Shown: piece by piece, positions 1-23,295 of the stretch | How positions within the stretch are numbered: position 1 is the stretch's first letter | How the letters are laid out: the number at the start of each line of letters is the position of its first letter | IMG/VR virus record: IMGVR_UViG_3300020457_000060 | Location: 1 to 29,106 of that record | DNA: 29,106 nucleotides | Source of the DNA: a virus | Lineage: Duplodnaviria > Caudoviricetes | Reading direction: 5' to 3' (one strand) | Translations under genes and position numbers: made by a program | The notes under the pieces: generated by a model | Told to the model about the DNA's origin: nothing | The model's input: only the letters and a program-made list of their open reading frames with translations | Databases searched by the model: none

Positions 1-591
1 ATAGAACTTTGTGAAAAAAGCAGAGCTTATACTCATGACCTAGACCCAATAACTACTATATCGGGAGTTCATGAGTATGAGTTTGATCAACCAAGTGGTA
101 CAGATGTACACCAAATACAATGGGCTACTTTTGATGGCAATGACTTAGATCCTATAAGCCCAAGAAGTTTAGAATTAAATTATCCTGATTGGAGAGATAA
201 ATCAGGTATACCTACAGTATATTTGCAGAAAACAGCTAATACTTTTTGGTTAGTACCAGTACCAAATGCAAAAACTGTTGATGGGTTATTGGTGAATGTA
301 GCTTTAAAACCAACAAGAACTACTAACAATATAGATACAGAATTTAGTAACACTTATCGCGACGGGATTATTTATGGTGCTATTTACAGGTTGTTAAGAA
401 TACCTGGTAAAGAGTGGACTAATCCTATGGCGGCTGCTGATTATTTTAACCTGTTTCAAGCTGAAGCGTCTGATGCAGAGTTAAGAGGTAGAGGAGGCAA
501 CATAGGTGTTAAAAGAACAGTAAAATATAAAAGTGCTGGTTTATCCCCAAGGAAGAGGTATGGACGATACGGAAAAGAGTTGGACAACTGA
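1..591 (+). CDS. Head-tail adaptor / tail tubular A-like protein (5' partial)
   Basis: Frame 1 is open from base 1 (IELCEKSRAYTHDLDPITTISGVHEYEF...) to TGA at 591, so the track's 223 start is internal. The segment YRDGIIYGAIYRLLRIPGKEWTNP resembles podophage adaptor proteins, and the gene precedes the ejection genes. Confidence 0.65.
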   Translation: MELCEKSRAYTHDLDPITTISGVHEYEFDQPSGTDVHQIQWATFDGNDLDPISPRSLELNYPDWRDKSGIPTVYLQKTANTFWLVPVPNAKTVDGLLVNVALKPTRTTNNIDTEFSNTYRDGIIYGAIYRLLRIPGKEWTNPMAAADYFNLFQAEASDAELRGRGGNIGVKRTVKYKSAGLSPRKRYGRYGKELDN

Positions 592-5153: not shown

Positions 5154-8100
5154 ATGTCAGAAAAAATACGCCAAATTTTACTTGCCGAAAGAACGGATCT
5201 TGCTAGAGACGCACGAAGAAGGGAACGAGAACTACCAGACATTTTAGTAAGGGAAGCGCGAGAACCTATTAGTGAGTACAACCCTCCGGAAAGAACTTTT
5301 AACTATGGTACAGCAGAGTATTTTGCCGAAGGGTATCGCGCAGGTTTTGAACAAGTAGCTGGATCTTTTGATGGTATCTCTGCCATTGGTAATTTACTAG
5401 TTGGGGATAAAGAAAGTGCAGAAAAAGATCTTGCTCGAATGGAGATGCATGATAAAAATATTCAAGCAGCTCTTTCCGAACTAGACACCTTTGAAGGTTT
5501 CGTAGATGACCCTACTTTAGACGGTGCTTTTAAACAAGTAGCTAGAGGAGCTGGACAACTTATATTCCCAGCAGCTTTAACTATAGGAGAAGGTTTAGCC
5601 ACTGGTTTTACTGCTACTGCTGCTAGAACCGCTTTTACACAACCTGGTAGAGCCGCTCTAAAAGATTTATATACTTCTACGGTAAGAAAAGTAGGGGGCA
5701 TACGCGCGGATAGAGATTTCATACCAGATACAGACATGGCTATGGGCGCTTTTTCTGGGCAAGGTTGGCAGAAAGCTGCTAAAACACCTAACGCATTTGA
5801 AGAGATGTGGTTTAAAACTCTACAAAACAAAGGTGTTGAAAATTTAACACCGGAAGAAAAAGTAGTTATGGATGTTACTCGTAAGTATTTACGAGAAGCA
5901 AAAATTGGTGGAGCCATAGGTGCTTTTGCTGCTGCAGAAACTATGATTGCTCCTGAAATTTTAAGGGAGTACCAAGAAGCTGGTTTAGAGTTAGGACCAA
6001 CAGAGGCTCTAATGGCAACTTTAAGTGGAGTTCCAGCTGCTGCTCTAGATGTACTAGCAGAGTCAGTTTTCTTTGGTGCTATGTTTAAAATGGCCACACA
6101 GTCTACTCGACTTAATAAAGCCAAACTAAGATTACAAAGAGGCGATAAATTAAATGAGTCGGATATGCAGGCTTTGGCTATAGACCAAAAAGCCCGTATT
6201 GAAGGCGTGGATAGTTTAGACAGAATAGAAAAAGAATTTTTAAAAAGATACGAAAAGAGAAGTGCTTTAACTCTAATGGGGGATGTAGCTAAAATGTCTC
6301 TTGCTAGTACTGCAGCAGAAAGTGCTACAGAGGGTTTACAGGAAGAAATAATAATGAGTCAAAGAACTCTAGTTGACCCTTCTTTTGATAACCAAAGCCA
6401 AGAAGCTAATTTAAGAAGAATGCAAGCCTATTTTGATGGCGGTGTAGGAGGGGGTGGACGTGGTCTTATTGGTGGAACAAGTGCTGCTATATTTAGACAA
6501 TCTAGGGAATTTCTTTCTCAAGTACGAGAAGATAAAGAGTGGGCAAAAATACAAGCTGAAAAATATGCAGATTTAGAGGAGCTTGGCGGATTGCCAGAAA
6601 CCAGAGAAGATATCCAAGCACAGTTAAATGCTATGGTTGACCCCGACTACGAAAGAGAGGCGGTGTGGCTTACCACAGAAGCGTTAGCTGCTAATGATTT
6701 AACATATCGTTTCTCTACTCCGGAGGCATCTCCAACACTTAGAGAAAGGTTAAGGCAGCCCACTGCAGAAGAAATAAATGCAGCCATAAGCGAACGTCCA
6801 ACCGATCCTTTAATAACTGGGGCTGCTCGTTTAAGTGCTAAAAAATTTAGAGAGTTTTTAAATGAGGCTTTTGCTACAAAGGGCAGAAAAGAACAAGATA
6901 TTCCTAAACTAGGTATATCAATAGACCCTGACGGATTTGGTATTTTAATAACGCCTAACCCAAAACTAAGGGAGTTTTACCAAAGTCAAAGAGCAGATGG
7001 TGCAAACATTAGAAATGTGTTGGCACAAATTTTACAGTTTGAGCCAGAAGTAGAACCTGAAGACGGTGAAGTACAAGCTGAAACAGATGTTGTAGCTACA
7101 GACGAAGCTGGTTTAAGTGGACAACAGCAAGTAGTGCAATTAACAGAGGACGATAAGGTCGTCTGGGAACAAACAACAAGCACTAGTAATTTACGTAAAG
7201 TAGTTAAAAAAGCCGAACAACAATATAAGGGCCCAGAAAAAATTAAAAACGCACCTACAAAAGGTCCACAACCTGAACAACTAACTCTTCCTGGTATGGG
7301 AGAGGGGTACACAATTCAGTACCCAATGTCAGAGCAAAATATTGAAGACCAATTAAATGCATTAGACAGTTATGAACAACAACTTTTAAGTGGTATAGAA
7401 CAAGCAATTATAGATGATGACTTGCCTAAAATGCGCGAGTTAAAAGCTAATCTTGAAGGTACTAAAAAAACTCGAAAAAATTTAAAGATTGTTATCAAGA
7501 GCCCAGAAGAAGTAGCTGATGAACGTTTAGCAGCTAATAAAAAAGATGATAAAGAAATTATTACTAGAAATATGGTTTTGGATGGCGGGCTTGACGAAGA
7601 TGAGGTCAACAATACTCTTAAGTCTACTACAGAGCAATATGGTACTAGCATAATAGGACCCTTGGCTAAAGATCAAGATGCTGATTTAGCTTATGAAACC
7701 TCTAACCTTTTGGGTATGGGTAGAAGTGATAATGAGATAGTTCAAGGTAAAAAAGGAGCATATGCTTTTTCAACATTACCCCTAGAAAAATTTAAACTTT
7801 TAGATAGAAAAGCACAAGATAAAGTAAGGCTTCAAAGAGCTGAGGCGATGTTTGCAACCGTAAGAGCACAATTACTAATTGACGATGTATTTCTGCATAC
7901 AGAAGACTCCGATAGGGTTGCAGACTTTAATGAACAACTTACAGTTCTTAATCAAGGGATAGATAAAACTGAAAAAGAATTTACTAATTTACAAGATTCT
8001 GAAACTGCAAAAGCCTTACAAAGAACAAACGCTTTAGCACTCGAGGTTTTTCTGAAAGATCCCAAGAATAGTAAATTTAGTCGAAATAAACTAACAGAAC

Positions 8101-11100
8101 AATATTCAAAATTAGACGGATCGGCAAAACGTAAATTAATAATAGATAGTTGGAAGAAAAACGTAGATAGACCGGTAGAATCTTTAGAGCTGTATTTACA
8201 AGCGATTAGTAACAAAAAGAAACATATAAAAAAATTAACACTTCAAAGGGAACAGTTAATACAGCTTCGTGATGAGTTTTTACGTGAAGCGCCTACAACA
8301 GACCAAAGTAGTTTTAGTACTGCTAAAAATGCTAGGTTTAGAAAAACTAGAACTTTTATAGAAGAGAAACTTTTAGGCACAATCCCTGAAGATAAGAGAA
8401 CACAGGTGTTAGGTAAAGATAGTGACCCTGTAGCATTTATGGAACTTTTGGAAGAAGTATACAGCGATATTGAAGACCATATGCTTTTAGAACCCTCTGG
8501 GGCTGTAGTATCAGATGCTACTAAAGATAGTATAAGAGAATTAATAAGAAAAAACGAAGCCATACTAGCACAGCGTGATTTAGATATCATAATAAATAGG
8601 CAAAATAAAGCTAGAGAAACACGTAGTAAATTACGTCGCGAAAACAAAAACAATATTGTTAACCCTGGTGCTGTAGAGGGGAGAATAGCCAAAGAGAATT
8701 TAGTTGAGAGGGCTGATAATTTTTTTGATGACAGCATTCTTTCTAGAAGAAGATTAGAAGCCTTAGAAATGGTAGCTGAAAACTATGTGCTTGGAGAGCA
8801 GGGAGTTGCTTTAAGTGACTTAGGGTATAGGCAGGGGGAATCTATTACCTCTACGTTAGGTGGCATTTTGGAGGATAGTAAATCTGCTTTATATGACCCA
8901 GAGGTTTACAGGGCCAATGGTACTATTTTAGAAGTTTTAAAAGAGACACAAGAGGCCGACCCAAATTCTATCTATGAGATAGTTGGCTCTTCTGCAGCGG
9001 AAGCGCCCGCAAGTGACTTTATACTTAACCCTAAAACAACAAGAACAATCGAAGATACAGCCACTCATATAATGATGGCAAAGAAGATTAAAAAAAATGG
9101 CGAAGGTTTTGACGCACTTCAAATTCCTGCTTATATTGAAGCGGCAAGGAGCGTTGCAAATGTACAAGGGCAAAAAATTGTTGTTTCTTTTGAGGCTTTA
9201 GATAGCAAATACGGGCCGCAAGCTAGAGAAATAAAAGCGTTCCTTAACCAATTAAAAGATATAAACATTTCAGATGATTACCAATCTATAGTTAAAAAAA
9301 TAACTCCAGAATCTGAAGTAGGTTTATATGGTGCAAAATATATAGACGGTGTGACTGGCAAACAAATGCCAGCTAGAAAAGCAGTACAAAAAGCAGTTAG
9401 TAATGCTAGGCAAATTAATAGGGATCTAAGTGAAACAGAACATATAAACAAAAATGAATACACAAATATACCTGGTTCAATGCCTTTAAAATATGGGTGG
9501 TTTTACAGAAGTTATAATAAGAAAAACGAATCAAGCGATAACGCTCTTGCTATGAATGAAGTGCTCAGTGCCGGAGTCTCTATTATAGAAAGCAGACTAG
9601 ATTCGATAGAGAGGTCAACTGCAGATTTTAATTTTAAGTTAGCTACTGGTTTTGGACATTTATTGTCTGATGGTCACCTAATAAGTTTTCAAGATATGGA
9701 TGGTAAAAACGGAGACATTGTATTTAAGTATCGAACTTATGATAAGAAAAAGAAGGAATACACCGCTATACAAGAAATAGTTGTAAAAGATTTTGAACAA
9801 CGAATAGAGGACAAGGCTTTACAAGGACACCTTAAACCTACCGCTGTTATTGAGACTCAAACAATAAAAGAAGGAAAAGACGGAGAAGTTGTTGAGGGTG
9901 TAAAAACATCAAAATATACAACAAGAGTTCTTGTAGACAAAAAAAGTAGAGTACCTGCTAAATATATAAGGTTTAACCCTACTGTTTTTAAAAAAGCGAT
10001 TAAACCTGATTATTTCATGTCAGAGAAACCTTATAGTGCTACCTCTATGAAAGATAGAGATCGAATATTTGAAAATGAATATAGTTTATTTAATTTACCT
10101 ATTTACTATAACCCTAAAAACCAAAGAGCTACAGACCAACACCAAAGTGCTCAAGACCTTATGGAAGAGAGCCAGCAAACTCCATTTTATTACACTACAA
10201 ATGAGTCAGGGCAAGTTACTATAAAAAAACTTAGAAAAGAAGATTTACATTCTACTATAAGAAACAAAAAGAAAATGCTAGCGAACCCAGATGCTGAGGA
10301 TGTAGCAGATGTAAAAATGAGCGAAGTAGAGGGTTTAGTAGAGGGGTTAAATGAATCTGAAAAAGAAGGTGCTTTACTTGGCTATGGGAGTATAGAAGCC
10401 GTAGAGGATCGAATTAAGGCAATATATCTTGATAAGTATAAATTACCAAAGGAATCTTTTGATGATGAAAAGTTTTTACTTGAAAATTTAGATATAAAAA
10501 ATGATTTAGTTTTAGAAGAGATTTACACCGGTCTACAGGAAGGTGTTGATTTTGTAGGGTTTGATATAGCTCAAAAGCTAGGTTACAACGTAGTGGGTCT
10601 CGCTCCACAAATGAAACAATTTGGTAGAAAACAAAAGGCACTAAAAACCGAAAGTTTAGGTTTGATGTCTGTAATTTATGGAGAGGACCCTAATCTTGTA
10701 CAAGAAGGGCCGCCTGTTCCGGGATCGGTAGACGTTACTGGAGTACCCGTAAAAGGTTTAGATAGATTAAGACAACAAAGAATTGCAATAAGAAAAGCTA
10801 TTCAAAAAACAATGTCTGAACCACCTCCAAAAATACCTGTTACTACAGTAGTGCCTTTTAATAAAAACAAACAAGGGAAAAATATCCTACCTAAAGGGGC
10901 GGTAAATGTATTACGAAACTCTAAAAAACCTAACGAGCATTATGGAAACCCTTTTGTTTTCAGTAAGGAATTATTTGAGAATATAAAGAAAAAAGGCACA
11001 AAAGCTATTTTAGTAAAAAATAGAGCGAGAGCGGTAAATAATTATAGGGATTGGTTAAATGGCAAGATGCCAGAGTTAGAACCGGAAAGACGTCAATGGA

Positions 11101-14100
11101 TACTTGATCAAATAAAACAAGGTAAATTAGATGGTAAAAAATTAGCATATTCCACAGGAGGTAAAGCTACTGCCTCATCGAATATGAGTCATGCGAATGT
11201 TTTAGCTGAAGCTGTAAATAAACGAACCTTAAATAAATTAGACCAACAAAAGTCTAAGACAAAAGTTATTGCCGGGATGATGGATCCTAAAGTTGTGGGC
11301 AACGTAGAAAGCTATTCTGCACGTACTGAAATTATAACAAGAACTTCTGATGCAATAGTTATGTTTGCTGAGGCTGATGCTAAAGGATTTTTTACTCCTG
11401 GGAGTCAACTTACAAAAAATCTTGCAGAAAGATATGGTAAACCAATATTAATAAACCCTACTTCTGAGTATGAAATTATTAACTTCCTTACTAGTAATAA
11501 GGTTAAAAAGTTAATGATTGCTGGTAGTGGTCTGGATGTAAATCTTTTAAAAGAAACAAAGTATGATCAGATTTTGCATGATGCTTTAAAAGAGGTAAAA
11601 GATCTACAAGGCAAAAAAGGAAAAGAATTAGCTGAATTTAAAAGAAAAGCCCTAGAAACCCCAGAAAAATTTGTCTACCCTAGTTTGGAAGAAGAGAACG
11701 AAATACTAGACGCAATGATAATTGAAGCAAATTTAAAAATAAAAGATCCTTCTGTTTATGCTACTTATATTGGTGATCAAATAGGTACTAGTTCAGATTC
11801 TGACCCTTTAAATATAGCGGAGGATCTTGAAGGGGAAGCAGCGGCCTTAGCTAGGTCTAAAAAAATGGTAAAAACGGATTTACCTTTAAAGACAGTTCTT
11901 TCCAGACAACAAGTTATAAATGGTGAGGTTATTGATGGAGTGCAAGATTTAGATGTAAAAAATGGCATATATATTGAGGATGATGTTAGTCGTGATTTTG
12001 AAGATTTAGAAGTCCCAAGAGGTGAAGATGCTGGTACTTTAGTAGCTAACCAACTTTTAAGTTTAAGACGTAAAAAGTTATCTGATTTAACTTTTGCAGA
12101 AAAAAGGGCAAAAGAAATAATAGAGCAAAAAACTAATAAAATATTCGCTACTCCTAGAGACTTATATTTAATGTATAAACAATTAGGACAAGATTTAAAC
12201 TTAGACGTAGCAAAAGCCGGAAGAATTGTAGACCCTATTAAAAGACTATCTGAAATTGCAAGGGACAAGTTAGGTTTAAAAAGAAGAAAAATATTTATCA
12301 TGTTCGATGACAAGCTAATTAAATTTAGCGACCCCGAATTGAATAGAGCTATCCAAAATGCTTTATTTGAAGCAAAAGAACCGGCGAGTGTTAACAGAGA
12401 TGGTAAACAGGTTACTGAATTATTAACTTGGGCAGAAAATTATCAAGCGCCAGAAAAATATATAAACAGAGGTAATGTAGATGTTATTGTATTAAAGAGA
12501 CCTAGTAGATATCAAAACCTGATAAAACAAGACCTCCAAAAAGCTGGACTTCCTGCGGATTTACTTCCAGATACAAGTGAGCTGGAGGGGGTTGTTGCAG
12601 GTGGATTAGTGCATGGTTTTGGGCATTCTTTCTTTAATGAATATGTTACCGAAAGAACTCTACAGGAAACAAAAGAGGGTAGAGCTATTTATAAAGAATG
12701 GCAAAACCTTAGTAAAGAAGCTACTGCTCCGACTCAGTGGAAAGATTCTGTGTTGGGTTTTGAAGAGTACATAGCAGACCTTGCTGGGGGTGATATTTTT
12801 AATACAGCTCTAGCAAAAAGAAAAGAAAGTGACAAATTTATTAAAGATTTAACTAAAAGATACCAGACTACCCTAAGCACTATGAGAGTTAGTTTTGCTA
12901 AAAGTATGGGACTTAGGCTTAATAGACCTAAACAAAAAACTTTTACAGATTTCGTAGCTGTAGTCAAAGAACAATTTAGAGGCACACAAAAAGACCGTGG
13001 CAGTGGAACTGTTACTGCTGCTGTGCGTGAACAACTGGACTTATTCGACACGAGCATAAAAGAAAAACTTGTAAAAGAAAAAATTATTACAAGAGATATG
13101 AAACTTGATGATGTGTTAGATAAGTATGATGAAGTTGTAGGCACTCCGGGTTCTGCAAAAGAAGCCATTGATAAACTTAATGACATGGTGCGTTTTACAG
13201 TTTCTTCTAGTACAGACTATTTACGTTTTCAAGGTGCAGATGATACTTTCGTAAATATGTTAAATAGAGAAACTCAATCGCCTACTGGTTTAGGGTTTGT
13301 ACAAGAAGAGGTTGATGAGTACCAAAGGGTTATTAATTCTTTATTTAAACCTCTTGCAACAATGTTAGATATACCCGTGGGCACTTGGGGAGACGACACG
13401 GAGATAGGTGCAAAACATAGACCTAGATTAAGGCAGGCCTTTATTCAATATTCTGCAGATATGAAAATTTTTGGGGAAAAAGAATTAAGAAAACAATTAA
13501 AAAATCCTGAGTACTTAAGCCCTAAAGCAGATAAAAAAGGTAGGGAACAATCCAAACGTGTAACAGCGTCAAGTTTGCACATATTTAAAACAATGCAAAA
13601 AATAAAAAGACAAATGGAACTTAATGGTTTAGCTGTTAGGGAAAATCATGATTTAACTAGAAACTATGATATAGAAGCTATTAGTGTTAAACCTGTTTTA
13701 TTCAACACTATGGCTCGATTAATTTATGAAGCTGAAGGTAATGATGTATCTTATGAAGAGTCTGTAAAGGCGGTAGAAGAAGCTATTAAAAACAGAGAAC
13801 AAAACGATACTTTAATAAAAGATGATGAAGAGCTATCTCCTTATGTTGCTAGTTTAGCTATCGGAATGTCTCCAAAAAGAGCTCAACTTTTTAAAAACGT
13901 ATCTACTTATGACTTGGTAAGATATGGGTTGGTTACAGATATATTAGATTCTCAAATACAAGGTATTCGTAACATTGTTAAAAAATACATGTATAACAAT
14001 AAAGTACAAAAAGTTTTAAGAGACGAAGAAATATTGAGGGCAAGAGAGTTAGTAGGTTTAAAAAGATTTAAAACACCTTCTGGTAACGTAGTTGACGACG

Positions 14101-15434
14101 CTTCGTTTTTAGAGTTTTTAGCAGAAAAAGAAACTAGAGCTGAACAGAAAAAACGTATTTCAAAAACGGGAAAAAAAGGTAAAAAGAAAGAAGATTTTAC
14201 GGAAGCACCCTATCTCCTTAGAGGGTGGCAAGCTGCTACTGCTTACGTATGGTTAGATCCAAATGTTAAAGATCCAATAGCAGTTAGTAATACTGTAGGT
14301 GCGATTACAGGAAAAATAGGTTTGGAAATTAATAGCATGCCTTACTTTAGATCAGCACAATCAGGAGCTATGTTACTAAACCAAATGACTTTTCTTACTT
14401 TTAGTGGTCTTTCTAGCTTACCAGAGTTAGCTGGTCCAGCTATACAAAGAGGAGACTTTGAAGGATTACTACTAACTTTTCAGGGCATTGGTAAAAACTT
14501 AAGAAATAAAGAAGAAGTAGATAACTTTTTACTAGCTTTAGGGACTATGGGTATTTCTCAATCTCTAGAGAATAGTGTTTATGCAGGAGACATGGCGTGG
14601 GCTACCAGCACCACTCAAGAGTGGTCTAAATTTTTCTTTAAGAGCATTGGTGTAACTAAACTTATGGGTTTCTTATATAGAAACGCGGCTTTTGTATCTT
14701 ATAAAGCAATTGAAATGGATACTAAAAGAGCGTTGCAGGGGGATGCTAAATCTATAGAAAGACTAGCAGTAATTGGTTTAACCCCTAACGTAGCTAAAAA
14801 AGCTTTGACCGAGGTAGATTTCTTAAAAAAAGGAGACCCTAAAACTTTTCCAGATTATGAAAACAGGTTAAAAGGTAGTTCAGAAGCTAGGCAGTTTAGA
14901 AACTCTATGCAAAAATTAATTAAAGAAATGGTATTAAAACCAACATCAGCACAAAGGACAGTGTGGATGAATAACCCTTTCTTTGCTTTAATCGCGCAGT
15001 TAAAACCTTTTTATTATTCTTTTGGTAAAAATTATATTGGGGGTACTTACAAAAATATGCAGAGAGAGTACAGGTATGGTAACTATGTAGGAGCTTTACT
15101 ACCGCCTATGATATTAGTTGCAGGTATGTTGCCTTTAGCAGCAATAGGGCTCCATTTAAGAGAGTTATTTAAGTTTATTGTAAATGGTGGGGATCCAGAA
15201 CAATTTAAAGCTTTCAATCAATCCACTCCTACACTTATGTTAGATTTAGTTGATAGAGCAGGTTTATTAGGTAGAGCAGGTTTATTAGTTCCAATGTTCG
15301 AAGCTGAAATGTATGGAAGTACTTTCTTTAGTCCAGGGTTAGGTCCTACTATAGAAAGGGGTATTGATGTTATAGAGGGTAGAGGTAATATTTGGGATTA
15401 CGTACCATATGCCGGTGCATTTGGTTATGATTAA
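5154..15434 (+). CDS. Giant internal virion / large polyvalent protein, 3426 aa
   Basis: A 10.3-kb ORF with no Cys seen. The N-terminal region is Gly/Ala-rich with AESATEGLQEE. The C-terminal PTSAQRTVWMNNPFFALIAQLKPF plus hydrophobic segments resemble gp16-like DNA-transfer proteins. Internal SLOG-, DUF4326- and zincin-like motifs are present. Confidence 0.8.
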   Translation: MSEKIRQILLAERTDLARDARRRERELPDILVREAREPISEYNPPERTFNYGTAEYFAEGYRAGFEQVAGSFDGISAIGNLLVGDKESAEKDLARMEMHDKNIQAALSELDTFEGFVDDPTLDGAFKQVARGAGQLIFPAALTIGEGLATGFTATAARTAFTQPGRAALKDLYTSTVRKVGGIRADRDFIPDTDMAMGAFSGQGWQKAAKTPNAFEEMWFKTLQNKGVENLTPEEKVVMDVTRKYLREAKIGGAIGAFAAAETMIAPEILREYQEAGLELGPTEALMATLSGVPAAALDVLAESVFFGAMFKMATQSTRLNKAKLRLQRGDKLNESDMQALAIDQKARIEGVDSLDRIEKEFLKRYEKRSALTLMGDVAKMSLASTAAESATEGLQEEIIMSQRTLVDPSFDNQSQEANLRRMQAYFDGGVGGGGRGLIGGTSAAIFRQSREFLSQVREDKEWAKIQAEKYADLEELGGLPETREDIQAQLNAMVDPDYEREAVWLTTEALAANDLTYRFSTPEASPTLRERLRQPTAEEINAAISERPTDPLITGAARLSAKKFREFLNEAFATKGRKEQDIPKLGISIDPDGFGILITPNPKLREFYQSQRADGANIRNVLAQILQFEPEVEPEDGEVQAETDVVATDEAGLSGQQQVVQLTEDDKVVWEQTTSTSNLRKVVKKAEQQYKGPEKIKNAPTKGPQPEQLTLPGMGEGYTIQYPMSEQNIEDQLNALDSYEQQLLSGIEQAIIDDDLPKMRELKANLEGTKKTRKNLKIVIKSPEEVADERLAANKKDDKEIITRNMVLDGGLDEDEVNNTLKSTTEQYGTSIIGPLAKDQDADLAYETSNLLGMGRSDNEIVQGKKGAYAFSTLPLEKFKLLDRKAQDKVRLQRAEAMFATVRAQLLIDDVFLHTEDSDRVADFNEQLTVLNQGIDKTEKEFTNLQDSETAKALQRTNALALEVFLKDPKNSKFSRNKLTEQYSKLDGSAKRKLIIDSWKKNVDRPVESLELYLQAISNKKKHIKKLTLQREQLIQLRDEFLREAPTTDQSSFSTAKNARFRKTRTFIEEKLLGTIPEDKRTQVLGKDSDPVAFMELLEEVYSDIEDHMLLEPSGAVVSDATKDSIRELIRKNEAILAQRDLDIIINRQNKARETRSKLRRENKNNIVNPGAVEGRIAKENLVERADNFFDDSILSRRRLEALEMVAENYVLGEQGVALSDLGYRQGESITSTLGGILEDSKSALYDPEVYRANGTILEVLKETQEADPNSIYEIVGSSAAEAPASDFILNPKTTRTIEDTATHIMMAKKIKKNGEGFDALQIPAYIEAARSVANVQGQKIVVSFEALDSKYGPQAREIKAFLNQLKDINISDDYQSIVKKITPESEVGLYGAKYIDGVTGKQMPARKAVQKAVSNARQINRDLSETEHINKNEYTNIPGSMPLKYGWFYRSYNKKNESSDNALAMNEVLSAGVSIIESRLDSIERSTADFNFKLATGFGHLLSDGHLISFQDMDGKNGDIVFKYRTYDKKKKEYTAIQEIVVKDFEQRIEDKALQGHLKPTAVIETQTIKEGKDGEVVEGVKTSKYTTRVLVDKKSRVPAKYIRFNPTVFKKAIKPDYFMSEKPYSATSMKDRDRIFENEYSLFNLPIYYNPKNQRATDQHQSAQDLMEESQQTPFYYTTNESGQVTIKKLRKEDLHSTIRNKKKMLANPDAEDVADVKMSEVEGLVEGLNESEKEGALLGYGSIEAVEDRIKAIYLDKYKLPKESFDDEKFLLENLDIKNDLVLEEIYTGLQEGVDFVGFDIAQKLGYNVVGLAPQMKQFGRKQKALKTESLGLMSVIYGEDPNLVQEGPPVPGSVDVTGVPVKGLDRLRQQRIAIRKAIQKTMSEPPPKIPVTTVVPFNKNKQGKNILPKGAVNVLRNSKKPNEHYGNPFVFSKELFENIKKKGTKAILVKNRARAVNNYRDWLNGKMPELEPERRQWILDQIKQGKLDGKKLAYSTGGKATASSNMSHANVLAEAVNKRTLNKLDQQKSKTKVIAGMMDPKVVGNVESYSARTEIITRTSDAIVMFAEADAKGFFTPGSQLTKNLAERYGKPILINPTSEYEIINFLTSNKVKKLMIAGSGLDVNLLKETKYDQILHDALKEVKDLQGKKGKELAEFKRKALETPEKFVYPSLEEENEILDAMIIEANLKIKDPSVYATYIGDQIGTSSDSDPLNIAEDLEGEAAALARSKKMVKTDLPLKTVLSRQQVINGEVIDGVQDLDVKNGIYIEDDVSRDFEDLEVPRGEDAGTLVANQLLSLRRKKLSDLTFAEKRAKEIIEQKTNKIFATPRDLYLMYKQLGQDLNLDVAKAGRIVDPIKRLSEIARDKLGLKRRKIFIMFDDKLIKFSDPELNRAIQNALFEAKEPASVNRDGKQVTELLTWAENYQAPEKYINRGNVDVIVLKRPSRYQNLIKQDLQKAGLPADLLPDTSELEGVVAGGLVHGFGHSFFNEYVTERTLQETKEGRAIYKEWQNLSKEATAPTQWKDSVLGFEEYIADLAGGDIFNTALAKRKESDKFIKDLTKRYQTTLSTMRVSFAKSMGLRLNRPKQKTFTDFVAVVKEQFRGTQKDRGSGTVTAAVREQLDLFDTSIKEKLVKEKIITRDMKLDDVLDKYDEVVGTPGSAKEAIDKLNDMVRFTVSSSTDYLRFQGADDTFVNMLNRETQSPTGLGFVQEEVDEYQRVINSLFKPLATMLDIPVGTWGDDTEIGAKHRPRLRQAFIQYSADMKIFGEKELRKQLKNPEYLSPKADKKGREQSKRVTASSLHIFKTMQKIKRQMELNGLAVRENHDLTRNYDIEAISVKPVLFNTMARLIYEAEGNDVSYEESVKAVEEAIKNREQNDTLIKDDEELSPYVASLAIGMSPKRAQLFKNVSTYDLVRYGLVTDILDSQIQGIRNIVKKYMYNNKVQKVLRDEEILRARELVGLKRFKTPSGNVVDDASFLEFLAEKETRAEQKKRISKTGKKGKKKEDFTEAPYLLRGWQAATAYVWLDPNVKDPIAVSNTVGAITGKIGLEINSMPYFRSAQSGAMLLNQMTFLTFSGLSSLPELAGPAIQRGDFEGLLLTFQGIGKNLRNKEEVDNFLLALGTMGISQSLENSVYAGDMAWATSTTQEWSKFFFKSIGVTKLMGFLYRNAAFVSYKAIEMDTKRALQGDAKSIERLAVIGLTPNVAKKALTEVDFLKKGDPKTFPDYENRLKGSSEARQFRNSMQKLIKEMVLKPTSAQRTVWMNNPFFALIAQLKPFYYSFGKNYIGGTYKNMQREYRYGNYVGALLPPMILVAGMLPLAAIGLHLRELFKFIVNGGDPEQFKAFNQSTPTLMLDLVDRAGLLGRAGLLVPMFEAEMYGSTFFSPGLGPTIERGIDVIEGRGNIWDYVPYAGAFGYD
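10518..11590 (+). other. Split cpYpsA/SLOG (putative molybdenum-carrier-like) domain within the giant protein
   Basis: N-half EIYTGLQEGVDFVGFDIAQKLGYNVVGLAP (family pattern KIISGGQTGVDRAALD.A...G....G..P). C-half YSARTEIITRTSDAIVMF..PGSQLTKNLAERYGKPILI..KVKKLMIAG (family pattern Y..RT..NV..SD.T..F..GT..T...A....KP..LNVAG). Confidence 0.65.
10896..11219 (+). other. DUF4326-like domain nested inside the SLOG domain
   Basis: VNVLR..HYGNPF..RARAVNNYRDWL..LDGKKLAY..SHANVLAEAVN follows the family pattern R..WGNPF..R..A...Y..WL..L.GK.L.C.C..CH..VL, with the cysteines replaced. Confidence 0.65.
12612..12783 (+). other. Zincin-like (MPTase-type) motif lacking the catalytic Glu
   Basis: LVHGFGHSFF followed about 45 aa later by FEEYIADL. 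This is the HExxH...EE..A arrangement with E replaced by G. Confidence 0.5.
15254..15288 (+). repeat. Exact 17-nt tandem direct repeat (18-nt period) in the giant gene
   Basis: TAGAGCAGGTTTATTAG occurs at 15254-15270 and 15272-15288 and encodes RAGLLG-RAGLLV. Confidence 0.9.
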
Positions 15435-21522: not shown

Positions 21523-23295
21523 GTGTACTTTAAGTTAATTTCATTCAATGGTATTGCTCCCATTTTAGAACCTCGGTTGTTAAAAGACGAGGTGGGAGTT
21601 ACATCTCAAAATGTTAACTTAGAACGCGGTAATTTAAACCCACTATTTACTAATGGTAGTTACGCTAACTTAAATGCAAGTAGTATAACTAGTTATTACC
21701 AATATAAATTTGGTGGCACTATATATAATCTTGAGTTTGATGATGATGTAAATGTACAGCCGGGACCGATTGCAGATGATGCTTTTGATCGTTTGTATTG
21801 GACAGGACAAACTTTCCCACGTATGGCAAGTTCTACACAAATTACTACCGGAGGTTCTGGTGCATTTCCACGTAGTTCTTTTAGATTAGGTATCGAAGCT
21901 CCTGCAGCCACGCCAGCCGCTGCTAATCCTACAGGAACAGATGATGGTACTCAAGTAAAGTACAGTACTGCTTATGTTTATACCTTTGTTTCTGCTTTTG
22001 GAGAAGAAGGCCCGCCTTCATCACCTTCTAACGTAGTAACAAAAGTAGATGGTCAGTCAGTTGTAGTAAGTAATTTATCTACCGCCGCTGCTAAAAGTAA
22101 CACTAATTATGGTAGTGGTGTAGGCACTAAACGTATCTATCGTTCTAACACTGGTTCTAATACTACTGACTTTCAGTTTGTCGCAGAGGTAACTATGGCT
22201 ACTACTAGTTTTACAGATACTGCAAACAATGATGCCTTAGGTGAAGTTATACCTTCCACTTTTTGGATAGCTCCGCCTGATGATGACAGCACTTTATATC
22301 CAAACGGACAGATGAAAGGCTTAACTGCCATTGGTAATGGTATTTTTGCTGGTTTTAGTGGTAAACGACTTTGTTTTTCTGAACCATTCTTACCACATGC
22401 TTGGCCTGTTGCGTACCGTATAACATTAGAAGATGAAATCGTAGGTATATCTATGGCGGGTAGCGTATTATTTATAGGTACAAAAGGTACAAACTACATA
22501 GCAGCAGGTACAGACCCACAAGCAATGACTATACAAAAATTAGAAGCAGCTGAACCCCTACTATATAAAAGAAGTTTAGTTGATATGGGTGGATATTGTA
22601 TCTACTCAGGACCTGATGGTTTGATAGCAGTTGAGAATGGGCAGGTTACTAATTTAACTCAGGGGCTTATTAGTCCTGACCAATGGAAAGGTACATTTGT
22701 AGTACAGAGTGCTGGCATGCACGAAGGCAAATATGTTGGTCAACACTCTCTCCCCGGTCAAACTCCACAAGCCATAATTTTTGATCCTCGAGGTGATGTA
22801 AATGCTCTTACGACTGTAGATACATTATTAAATAATTTATCTAATACAAACAGAGGGTTTTATACTGACCCCGATACTAATCAATTATTTTTAATTAATA
22901 AGCCAGCTTCTGGTAATTGTACGATAGAAAGTTTTGATGATTCTGCTACTGATACAAAACGAACTTTTGTTTTTAAAAGTAAAGAATTTGTATTGCCTAG
23001 ACCTAGTAGCATGAACTTTGTAAAGGTTGAAGCTGACTCTTATGCAGGAGCAGGAGTAACAGTAAAAGTGTTTGGTGATGGTACAGAAATATTTGAGGCT
23101 ACAATTACAGCTTCTGGATCCGTGTTTAGTGCAACAGGCGCTGCTCCTACTTCTTTTAGTGCTACACAGATACAGGAACCTATACTACGTTTACCTACAG
23201 GTGTACATAAGGTATACCAGGTAGAAGTTGCTAGTGCAAATCCAGTGCATGAAGTATGTATTGGAGAGTCTATAGATGAACTGAGGTCAATCTAA
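21523..23295 (+). CDS. Tail nozzle / stabilization-like protein (tail tubular B analogue), 590 aa
   Basis: FNGIAP..PRLL N-terminus, YVYTFVSAFGEEGPPS, RIYRS, LCFSEPFLPHAWP and FKSKEF, all typical of beta-propeller-type podophage tail proteins. Confidence 0.65.
   Translation: MYFKLISFNGIAPILEPRLLKDEVGVTSQNVNLERGNLNPLFTNGSYANLNASSITSYYQYKFGGTIYNLEFDDDVNVQPGPIADDAFDRLYWTGQTFPRMASSTQITTGGSGAFPRSSFRLGIEAPAATPAAANPTGTDDGTQVKYSTAYVYTFVSAFGEEGPPSSPSNVVTKVDGQSVVVSNLSTAAAKSNTNYGSGVGTKRIYRSNTGSNTTDFQFVAEVTMATTSFTDTANNDALGEVIPSTFWIAPPDDDSTLYPNGQMKGLTAIGNGIFAGFSGKRLCFSEPFLPHAWPVAYRITLEDEIVGISMAGSVLFIGTKGTNYIAAGTDPQAMTIQKLEAAEPLLYKRSLVDMGGYCIYSGPDGLIAVENGQVTNLTQGLISPDQWKGTFVVQSAGMHEGKYVGQHSLPGQTPQAIIFDPRGDVNALTTVDTLLNNLSNTNRGFYTDPDTNQLFLINKPASGNCTIESFDDSATDTKRTFVFKSKEFVLPRPSSMNFVKVEADSYAGAGVTVKVFGDGTEIFEATITASGSVFSATGAAPTSFSATQIQEPILRLPTGVHKVYQVEVASANPVHEVCIGESIDELRSI

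Follow-up and report, generated by a model that had tools for sequence, protein, structure and literature searches.

Fusions of SLOG and DUF4326 domains have been published from phages and giant viruses (PMC7824862, PMC9503650). The parts of PMC9503650 drawn on here place both families in viral counter-ADP-ribose (counter-ADPr) networks, predicting a role for DUF4326 at the terminal phosphates of ADP-ribose products and, for viral SLOGs, the sensing or cleavage of ADPr derivatives. Neither the two families nor their fusion is new; no report of SLOG nesting or of a swappable SLOG loop was found in the literature searched, the figures and supplements of PMC9503650 lying outside that coverage. 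Here, we describe such a nesting in the window, i.e. the whole 29,106-base stretch of the virus record IMGVR_UViG_3300020457_000060 (Caudoviricetes; ~52% complete), where a DUF4326 domain lies between the two halves of a cpYpsA-type SLOG domain within a 3,426-amino acid (aa) protein, and where the receiving loop is occupied differently in related phages. Labels such as P0002 or L015 are our own handles.

The window protein resembles the published fusions (PMC9503650, PMC7824862) in combining both families in one phage polypeptide, in its virion or early context and in its predicted counter-ADPr role. However, those parts of the two papers describe a fusion, whereas the window DUF4326 sits inside the SLOG, has no cysteine and is exchangeable with AlkB. 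With cpYpsA (PF12694; solved structure 3imk) the window SLOG shares the permuted fold and the GxQxGxD, RT, SD, GxxLT, KP and AG elements, but it is split by ~210 residues, embedded in a 3,426-aa protein and altered in four motifs (GGT to VGL, RTxxN to RTxxI, SDGT to SDAI and NVAGNR to MIAGSG). Like the phage polyvalent proteins defined in PMC5512222, its host is a very large protein of virion type, with accessory domains that vary and a metallopeptidase (MPTase)-like motif; unlike those described in the portion of that paper covered, it has lost the MPTase Glu and its cargo varies inside a domain rather than between domains. The same portion contains no occurrence of SLOG, YpsA, 4326, NADAR or AlkB. 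A further relative in kind is ORF83 (EVADES preprint, 10.1101/2025.06.06.658234), a phage SLOG listed as anti-defence, with DUF4326-fused relatives and a retained RN/RT-helix Arg. In contrast to the window SLOG, ORF83 is, according to the excerpted preprint, small and stand-alone, and DUF4326 is fused C-terminally in its relatives; the two are compared here by description.

A DUF4326 domain nested between the halves of a cpYpsA/SLOG domain

All SLOG and DUF4326 motifs fell within a single open reading frame (ORF; Table 1). The original prediction had described two SLOG halves ~230 aa apart around a GNPF...SHANVL domain, and every motif was found as placed: TGLQEGVD at aa 1792-1799 (nucleotide (nt) 10527), GLAP at 1815-1818, GNPF at 1931-1934, SHANVL at 2012-2017, YSART at 2054-2058 (nt 11313) and LMIAG at 2120-2124, with 235 aa between GLAP and YSART.

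PF12694 (cut-off 26.2) scored 27.8 bits on the whole protein and 34.1 on the region, the match being confined to profile positions 51-125 (aa 2052-2125), i.e. the C-half, and a Pfam search with the N-half alone gave no match. Since Pfam detects only the C-half, annotation misses such split SLOGs. Both halves were recovered with our own cpYpsA profile, which was built from 56 stand-alone proteins of 140-185 aa out of at least 120 listed matches and run on the unspliced protein. Profile positions 2-35 aligned to aa 1787-1820 (E 1.3e-4, one sequence searched) and positions 59-149 to aa 2051-2147 (E 7e-13), which confirmed the permuted order, with the GQxGxD strand first and the AG-bearing strand last. 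The N-half sub-profile scored 9.8 bits; among 300 local shuffles, none reached this value and the highest score was 8.6. The GxQxGxD and RT motifs are 265 aa apart in the window, compared to 55-66 aa in 54 stand-alone proteins and 92-99 aa in orthologs with an "empty" loop, which still have ~35-40 extra residues there. The ~210 extra residues in the window comprise DUF4326 (~113), a Pro-rich and helical spacer (~90 aa) and a linker (~27 aa). Further, in each of the 7 orthologs examined, conservation was higher in the halves (N-half 29-65%, C-half 39-59%) than in their flanks (21-42%), and the ratio of nonsynonymous to synonymous substitution rates (dN/dS) between the window and ortholog L008 was 0.12-0.37, with dS near saturation. 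Both the SLOG and the DUF4326 domain are under purifying selection.

As had been anticipated, both domains depart from their family consensus. The SLOG keeps G1793, Q1795, G1797, D1799, R2057, T2058, S2065, D2066, G2083, T2087, A2123 and G2124, and has lost G-x-T at 1814-1816, N2061, G-T at 2067-2068, N2121, N2125 and R2126. The replacements (V1814, L1816, I2061, A2067, I2068, M2121, S2125 and G2126) stand at positions 95-100% conserved in 45 stand-alone rows, a conservation overstated because one query drew those rows. The consensus pocket (GGT, RTxxN, SDGT, NxAGNR) is absent, and the losses of Thr2068 and Arg2126 are common to all 6 other ortholog rows, each with Gly at 2126. LOG-type phosphoribohydrolases combine Arg/Lys, Thr and a catalytic Glu (Cg1261 R115, K116, T175, E178); compared by motif rather than by structural overlay, the window SLOG has R2057, T2058, S2084 and T2087 but no Glu at the last place, and this Glu is also absent from 45/45 stand-alone cpYpsA rows.

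An AlphaFold2 model of aa 1783-2150 from a 53-row alignment reached a mean predicted local distance difference test (pLDDT) score of 70.9 and a predicted template modelling (pTM) score of 0.50; local confidence was high in the N-half (Table 1) and over most of the C-half (85-97) and fell below 60 in the spacers. The model superposed on 3imk with Z 17.9 and a root-mean-square deviation (rmsd) of 2.6 Å over 138 of 158 residues (model 1..364 on 3imk 3..157), the next best of 995 chains scoring Z 6.2. The C-half comprises ~100 residues, so the N-half must contribute to the 138 superposed. VIA was used for this superposition, as Foldseek, which retrieved 3imk at E 2.6e-5, could not bridge the insert; PTP rows among the VIA matches (Z ≤5.1) cover the SLOG sheet and are uninformative on DUF4326. 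Prediction of the halves as two separate chains gave a score of 0.46, compared to 0.02 for the best control, a weak pass in which runs agreed in at least 82% of contacts with a partner pLDDT of at least 60. This mark was reached by 116/157 solved pairs (only 18/157 at ≤0.60) and by 2/215 mismatched pairs, and the pass likely rests on likeness to 3imk. In line with the original prediction, the halves are thus predicted to close into one cpYpsA-like Rossmannoid fold around the insert.

Domain insertion is a classic layout for allostery, and the insert bridges the strand-3 loop and the RT helix bearing the likely phosphate-binding Arg. Ligand binding by the split SLOG might therefore be mechanically coupled to the cargo, which a host NAD/ADPr signal would activate or release; the parts of PMC9503650 drawn on suggest that SLOG sensing regulates fused nucleic-acid domains. 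However, the long low-confidence spacers (~90 and ~27 aa) would uncouple the domains, and the site accommodates cargo of three kinds. We consider such a switch very improbable.

The proposed DUF4326 identity of the insert was borne out by PF14216, which, at a cut-off of 25, gave 29.6 bits for the isolated insert (aa 1909-1998) and 23.6 bits, below that cut-off, for the whole protein. Across 33 DUF4326 rows, G1931, N1932, P1933, W1967, W1982 and H2013 were invariant and Y1999 nearly so; mixed alignments of SLOG-only and DUF-only rows were misaligned and left out. None of 60 domains of this subfamily has any Cys, whereas the canonical P0153 (PF14216, E 2e-22) keeps C-x-C...C-H at the aligned place (LGCFC...CH compared to LAYS...SH in the window). 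A model of the domain (pLDDT 86.5) searched against BFVD returned 12 rows named DUF4326 among the top 25 (TM ~0.35-0.55, best E 0.02, none ≤0.001). A PDB sequence search with the DUF4326 alignment gave nothing below E 0.5, and the ESM Atlas gave no usable match. Likeness to NADAR (best Z 2.9 with 8bau, rmsd 5.6, 91 aligned; 3 NADAR rows of 24) was not used as evidence, and the basic charge of the domain (+13, within the top 3% of windows) was dropped as an indicator of DNA binding, the family median being about -1. In several giant proteins (P0004 aa ~2150-2310, L067, L068, L071, L077, L078), the Cys-less DUF4326 is in turn interrupted by insertions 40-160 aa long, which adds a further level of nesting.

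These features bear on a coupled two-step enzyme, in which an ADPr derivative would be cut between adenine and ribose by the SLOG and freed of its terminal phosphate by DUF4326, as predicted for viral SLOG-DUF4326 fusions in the part of PMC9503650 at hand. The tandem DUF-SLOG arrangement recurs in P0004, P0005, P0009, P0011 and P0012, and catalysis could involve the invariant H2013 and the nearly invariant Y1999. However, rhodanese-phosphatases need an active-site Cys (PMC9503650, same part), which the subfamily lacks and the canonical P0153 motif keeps, and the window SLOG is without equivalents of N2061, T2068, N2121, N2125 and R2126. We regard a two-step enzyme as unlikely. Because the rhodanese-phosphatase Cys is absent from the window protein, its DUF4326 is more likely a binder or a domain of other chemistry.

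Table 1. Features of the window associated with the split SLOG domain (positions in nt of the window).
Feature	Position	Strand	Basis
Virion/ejection-type polyvalent protein of 3,426 aa, host of the SLOG/DUF4326 module	5154..15434	+	ORF; C-terminal virion matches; gene neighbourhood
cpYpsA/SLOG N-half (strand-helix-strand, GxQxGxD), aa 1787-1820	10512..10613	+	Own profile E 1.3e-4; 0/300 shuffles; pLDDT 90-94; in 3imk superposition
Spacer 1 (remaining SLOG loop, Pro-rich stretch, one long helix at aa ~1869-1887), aa 1821-1911	10614..10886	+	Mostly pLDDT <60; little conserved
Cys-less DUF4326 domain, cargo in the window lineage, aa 1912-2024	10887..11225	+	PF14216 E 1e-6; invariant residues; model pLDDT 86.5
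Linker 2 (AlkB position in ortholog L015), aa 2025-2051	11226..11306	+	
cpYpsA/SLOG C-half (RT helix, SD strand, GSxLT, KP strand, permuted last strand), aa 2052-2147	11307..11594	+	PF12694 E 3e-7 on half alone; pLDDT 88-97 over most blocks
HGFGH, degenerate zincin (MPTase)-like motif, aa 2487-2491	12612..12626	+	Glu of HExxH lost

Occupancy of the SLOG loop in orthologs and in unrelated proteins

The ortholog set comprised 8 full-length lineages; 4 further loci (L009, L012, L014, L024) end outside the module, no ortholog was present in genome contigs (0/79 candidates) and a metagenome scan returned only 2 identical copies. The SLOG is retained in all 8 close lineages and tenancy of its loop is variable. 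DUF4326 alone was found in three lineages (the window, P0002/L008 and P0003), AlkB alone in one (L016; PF13532, E 2e-11, with HxD...H...R present) and DUF4326 followed by AlkB in another (L015), while the remaining three (L010/L011, L013 and L018) have no domain in the loop, just a helical extension of ~35-40 aa. Overall, DUF4326 is missing from 4/8 lineages and AlkB is present in 2/8. AlkB removes alkyl lesions from nucleic acids, and its tenancy lends support to the DNA-protecting module that had been offered as an alternative to a decoy.

The lineages L015 and L016 share 98% identity in their C-terminal 1,000 aa and differ by a domain-exact indel, one in-frame gap of 354 nt that corresponds exactly to DUF4326. 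Just 5' of this indel, at L015:11419-11479, DNA divergence from L016 was raised in a recombination-tract-like manner. The dN/dS was 0.07 for AlkB between these two lineages and 0.22 for the DUF4326 pair L015/L042. A distant ortholog, L081, is 27-33% identical at both ends, has no detectable SLOG and carries DUF4326 and AlkB, indicating that the cassette is independent of SLOG. Compared with L015, its DUF4326 is 79% identical (dN 0.12, dS 0.56), its AlkB 55% and its C-terminus 33%; the contrast between DUF4326 and C-terminus indicates recent lateral movement of the cassette. The record of L042 was rejected as an unrelated host because it has a distant ortholog in the same frame, and DUF4326 transfer is therefore read as taking place between distant orthologs. 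Tree topologies disagreed: host trees joined the window with P0002/L008 (100/100), whereas the DUF4326 tree joined P0002 with P0003/L015 (99/94).

The association of DUF4326 and SLOG is loose. Of 42 viral loci with this DUF4326, some of them duplicates or truncated, only 5 encode cpYpsA halves in frame with it at a distance of up to 2.5 kb, and 3 of these 5 belong to the window ortholog family.

The function originally proposed for the module was a virion-delivered sponge or decoy, in which SLOG and DUF4326 would sequester an NAD-derived immune signal such as glycocyclic ADP-ribose (gcADPR), histidine-ADP-ribose (His-ADPR) or a cyclic oligonucleotide. The SLOG does retain Q1795, G1797, D1799, R2057, T2058, S2065, D2066, G2083 and T2087, and the loss of catalytic-type residues is compatible with a binder. 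ORF83, moreover, is listed as anti-type III Avs in the excerpted preprint, with amoeba-virus homologs fused to DUF4326 (10.1101/2025.06.06.658234). The tenancy data run against a single purpose-built decoy, since DUF4326 is absent in 4/8 lineages, AlkB, a nucleic-acid-lesion enzyme, takes the same place in 2, L081 has DUF4326 without detectable SLOG and only 5/42 loci pair the two, so that they are not obligate partners. Known immune-signal sponges of the Tad1, Tad2 and Acb2 type are small, abundant stand-alone oligomers made in excess, whereas the module here forms an inner part of a protein of 3,426 aa. Ejection proteins, to which the window protein probably belongs (see below), arrive in few copies, as in podophage cores; few virion copies could not titrate an enzymatically made signal, and an enzyme or a DNA-tethered protector would fit better than a stoichiometric sponge. 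Taken together, the domain identities, the nesting, the predicted co-folding and the virion-protein context of the original prediction stand, while its sponge is, in our judgement, quite improbable.

The same data were set against a structural relic with passengers, i.e. a SLOG that is now a fixed structural part of an ejection protein and whose cargo is nearly neutral. All 8 close lineages keep the SLOG, yet its pocket changes are shared (Gly2126 and no Thr2068 in 6/6 other ortholog rows), the cargo is dispensable, with 4/8 lineages doing without DUF4326, and the adjacent MPTase motif is degenerate too. However, the dN/dS values for DUF4326 (0.22-0.37) and AlkB (0.07, L015 compared to L016) do not suit neutral cargo, AlkB retains HxD...H...R, and L081, without detectable SLOG, indicates that the SLOG is not essential in the wider family. 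A relic is rather unlikely on these grounds.

The same loop was also found occupied in other proteins. In L075, a canonical cpYpsA is split there by DUF4326 plus ~200 aa; the record has no match to the C-terminus of the window protein, and we take the L075 protein to carry an RNA-polymerase-like motif. The ~200-aa helical stretch beside its DUF4326 (L075:2816-3442) gave no Pfam or PHROG match. In P0189, the loop is occupied by a PHROG 2072 domain (E 2e-13), which is presumably "macro-like"; an assignment of this insert to DUF7831 was rejected in its favour. Inserts of 110-130 aa occupy the same loop in P0209 and P0228. In a survey of the best 150 of 735 representatives found with the C-half profile, 142 SLOGs had the halves in N-then-C order: 136 were intact, 3 had spans of 77-93 aa and 3 had spans of 172-246 aa, all in the same loop, and 9 more SLOGs were cut at the N-terminus. 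The PHROG 2072 domain of P0189 is one of these large inserts. No SLOG in this survey was split inside the C-half, a kind of split against which the C-half query is biased.

Reverse-order SLOGs, whose fold is circularly permuted once more, with the C-half from the RT helix preceding the GQxGxD half, were found in giant phage proteins (P0009 aa 2651-2806, P0012 aa 3781-3938, P0029 aa 3914-4067 and L071), and their chain ends lie at the same junction as the window insert. This location of the permuted chain ends is the likely structural reason why the loop would tolerate cargo. Other giant proteins (P0004, P0005, P0011) carry DUF4326 in tandem with a following intact SLOG. In P0011, the short linker KKAPEVK stands at each boundary around the two domains (aa 960, ~1084 and ~1239), repeats that could drive shuffling. 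In frame 2 of L047, upstream of DUF4326 in another giant protein, aa ~150-300 resemble a SLOG of another type, with a weak N-half score only and no Pfam match at E 0.01.

The host protein and its genomic setting

The left part of the window is a podophage-like structural module by Pfam and PHROG matches, in which the gene for the 3,426-aa protein is accompanied by those for a PF24175 adaptor, a 279-aa virion protein, an 860-aa ORF, tail fibres, an M15 endolysin, a holin and an internal virion protein. The C-terminus of the protein matched PHROG 30152, "virion structural protein" (E 1e-10), and its last ~300 aa matched the "virion structural protein" ORF088 of Pseudomonas phage KPP25 (Kochitakasuvirus; 24.8% identity, E 2e-10), a protein of ~2,000 aa of which only the C-terminal region was compared. 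A KPP25-type C-terminal match occurred in 7 records among 50,697 phages, and no KPP25 virion proteomics was found in the literature searched. From this gene order and match, the protein is likely an ejection protein, packaged in the head and injected with the DNA. It has no Cys over its whole length, as would be expected if it crossed the periplasm unfolded or loosely folded.

As a large multidomain host with lineage-variable accessory domains, the protein has the layout of polyvalent proteins. The Glu of HExxH is missing from its MPTase-like motif in 8/8 close orthologs, with the downstream EE..D kept, while the distant ortholog L081 has HEFGH, with the Glu present. Elsewhere in the window, a 159-aa ORF (533-1012) between the adaptor gene and the internal-protein genes gave a weak GNAT match (E 0.036), and a second "internal virion protein" gene (21523-23295; PHROG 511, E 8e-125, profile positions 320-861 only) lies past the lysis genes, away from the structural block.

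A candidate scaffold for exchangeable cargo

We favour, at somewhat better than even likelihood, the reading that the diverged SLOG of a probably injected giant protein is an insertion-tolerant scaffold for exchangeable cargo that acts early, in counter-defence or in protecting nucleic acid. The giant protein would travel in the phage head and enter the cell together with the DNA, and the SLOG would fold intact around one surface loop that serves this phage group as an insertion site, filled by DUF4326, AlkB, both or nothing. The cargo would move by in-frame recombination between co-infecting phages and would act in the first minutes of infection on ADP-ribose-type or alkyl marks and metabolites by which the host targets the entering genome. 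The window SLOG may then be a non-catalytic phosphate- or nucleotide-binding scaffold rather than a LOG-type hydrolase, and the Cys-less DUF4326 may bind a phospho-ribose or ADP-ribose group, or process it by His/Tyr/Arg chemistry, rather than act as a Cys phosphatase.

Several points weigh against this scaffold. Its function is deduced from sequence, and injection from the order of genes together with a match of 25% identity. Few SLOGs have large inserts, 136/142 of those surveyed being intact in a sample biased by the C-half profile. No flanking repeats were found at the ends of the L015/L016 indel, which repeats therefore do not explain, and since DUF4326 and AlkB occur without SLOG in L081, the insertion hot spot may extend over the entire middle of the protein and now happen to fall in the SLOG loop. 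A separate origin of the window DUF4326 is not claimed, as approximately unbiased (AU) tests do not reject monophyly (p 0.066 and 0.38). The chemistry of DUF4326 is a guess, its model having matched none of 48,161 solved chains at Z ≥5, with no rhodanese or PTP row. Finally, the fold alignment was rich in intact SLOGs, so that the model speaks for compatibility rather than proof, ~13 SLOG loop columns were wrongly placed on DUF4326, and the pTM was only 0.50.

A bolder version would make the cpYpsA SLOG a universal plug-in socket in injected proteins of several phage lineages. As a nucleotide-sensing scaffold, it would take any eraser (DUF4326, AlkB or macro-like) into its loop and tie the activity of that eraser, or its position on the entering DNA, to an NAD/ADP-ribose signal of the host, and the Cys-less DUF4326 would represent a new His-based ADP-ribose or phospho-ribose chemistry. 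We hold this to be improbable.

The locus offers a natural experiment: one insertion site occurs in four cargo states, and two of the proteins compared, 98% identical, are distinguished by DUF4326 alone. One state, AlkB, brings an assayable chemistry, and the cargo series makes the SLOG and DUF4326 families directly testable. The loop is, further, a site where a probable phage ejection protein naturally accepts 200-380 extra residues, and the locus shows payload exchange by polyvalent proteins, likely injected ones, taking place inside a folded domain.

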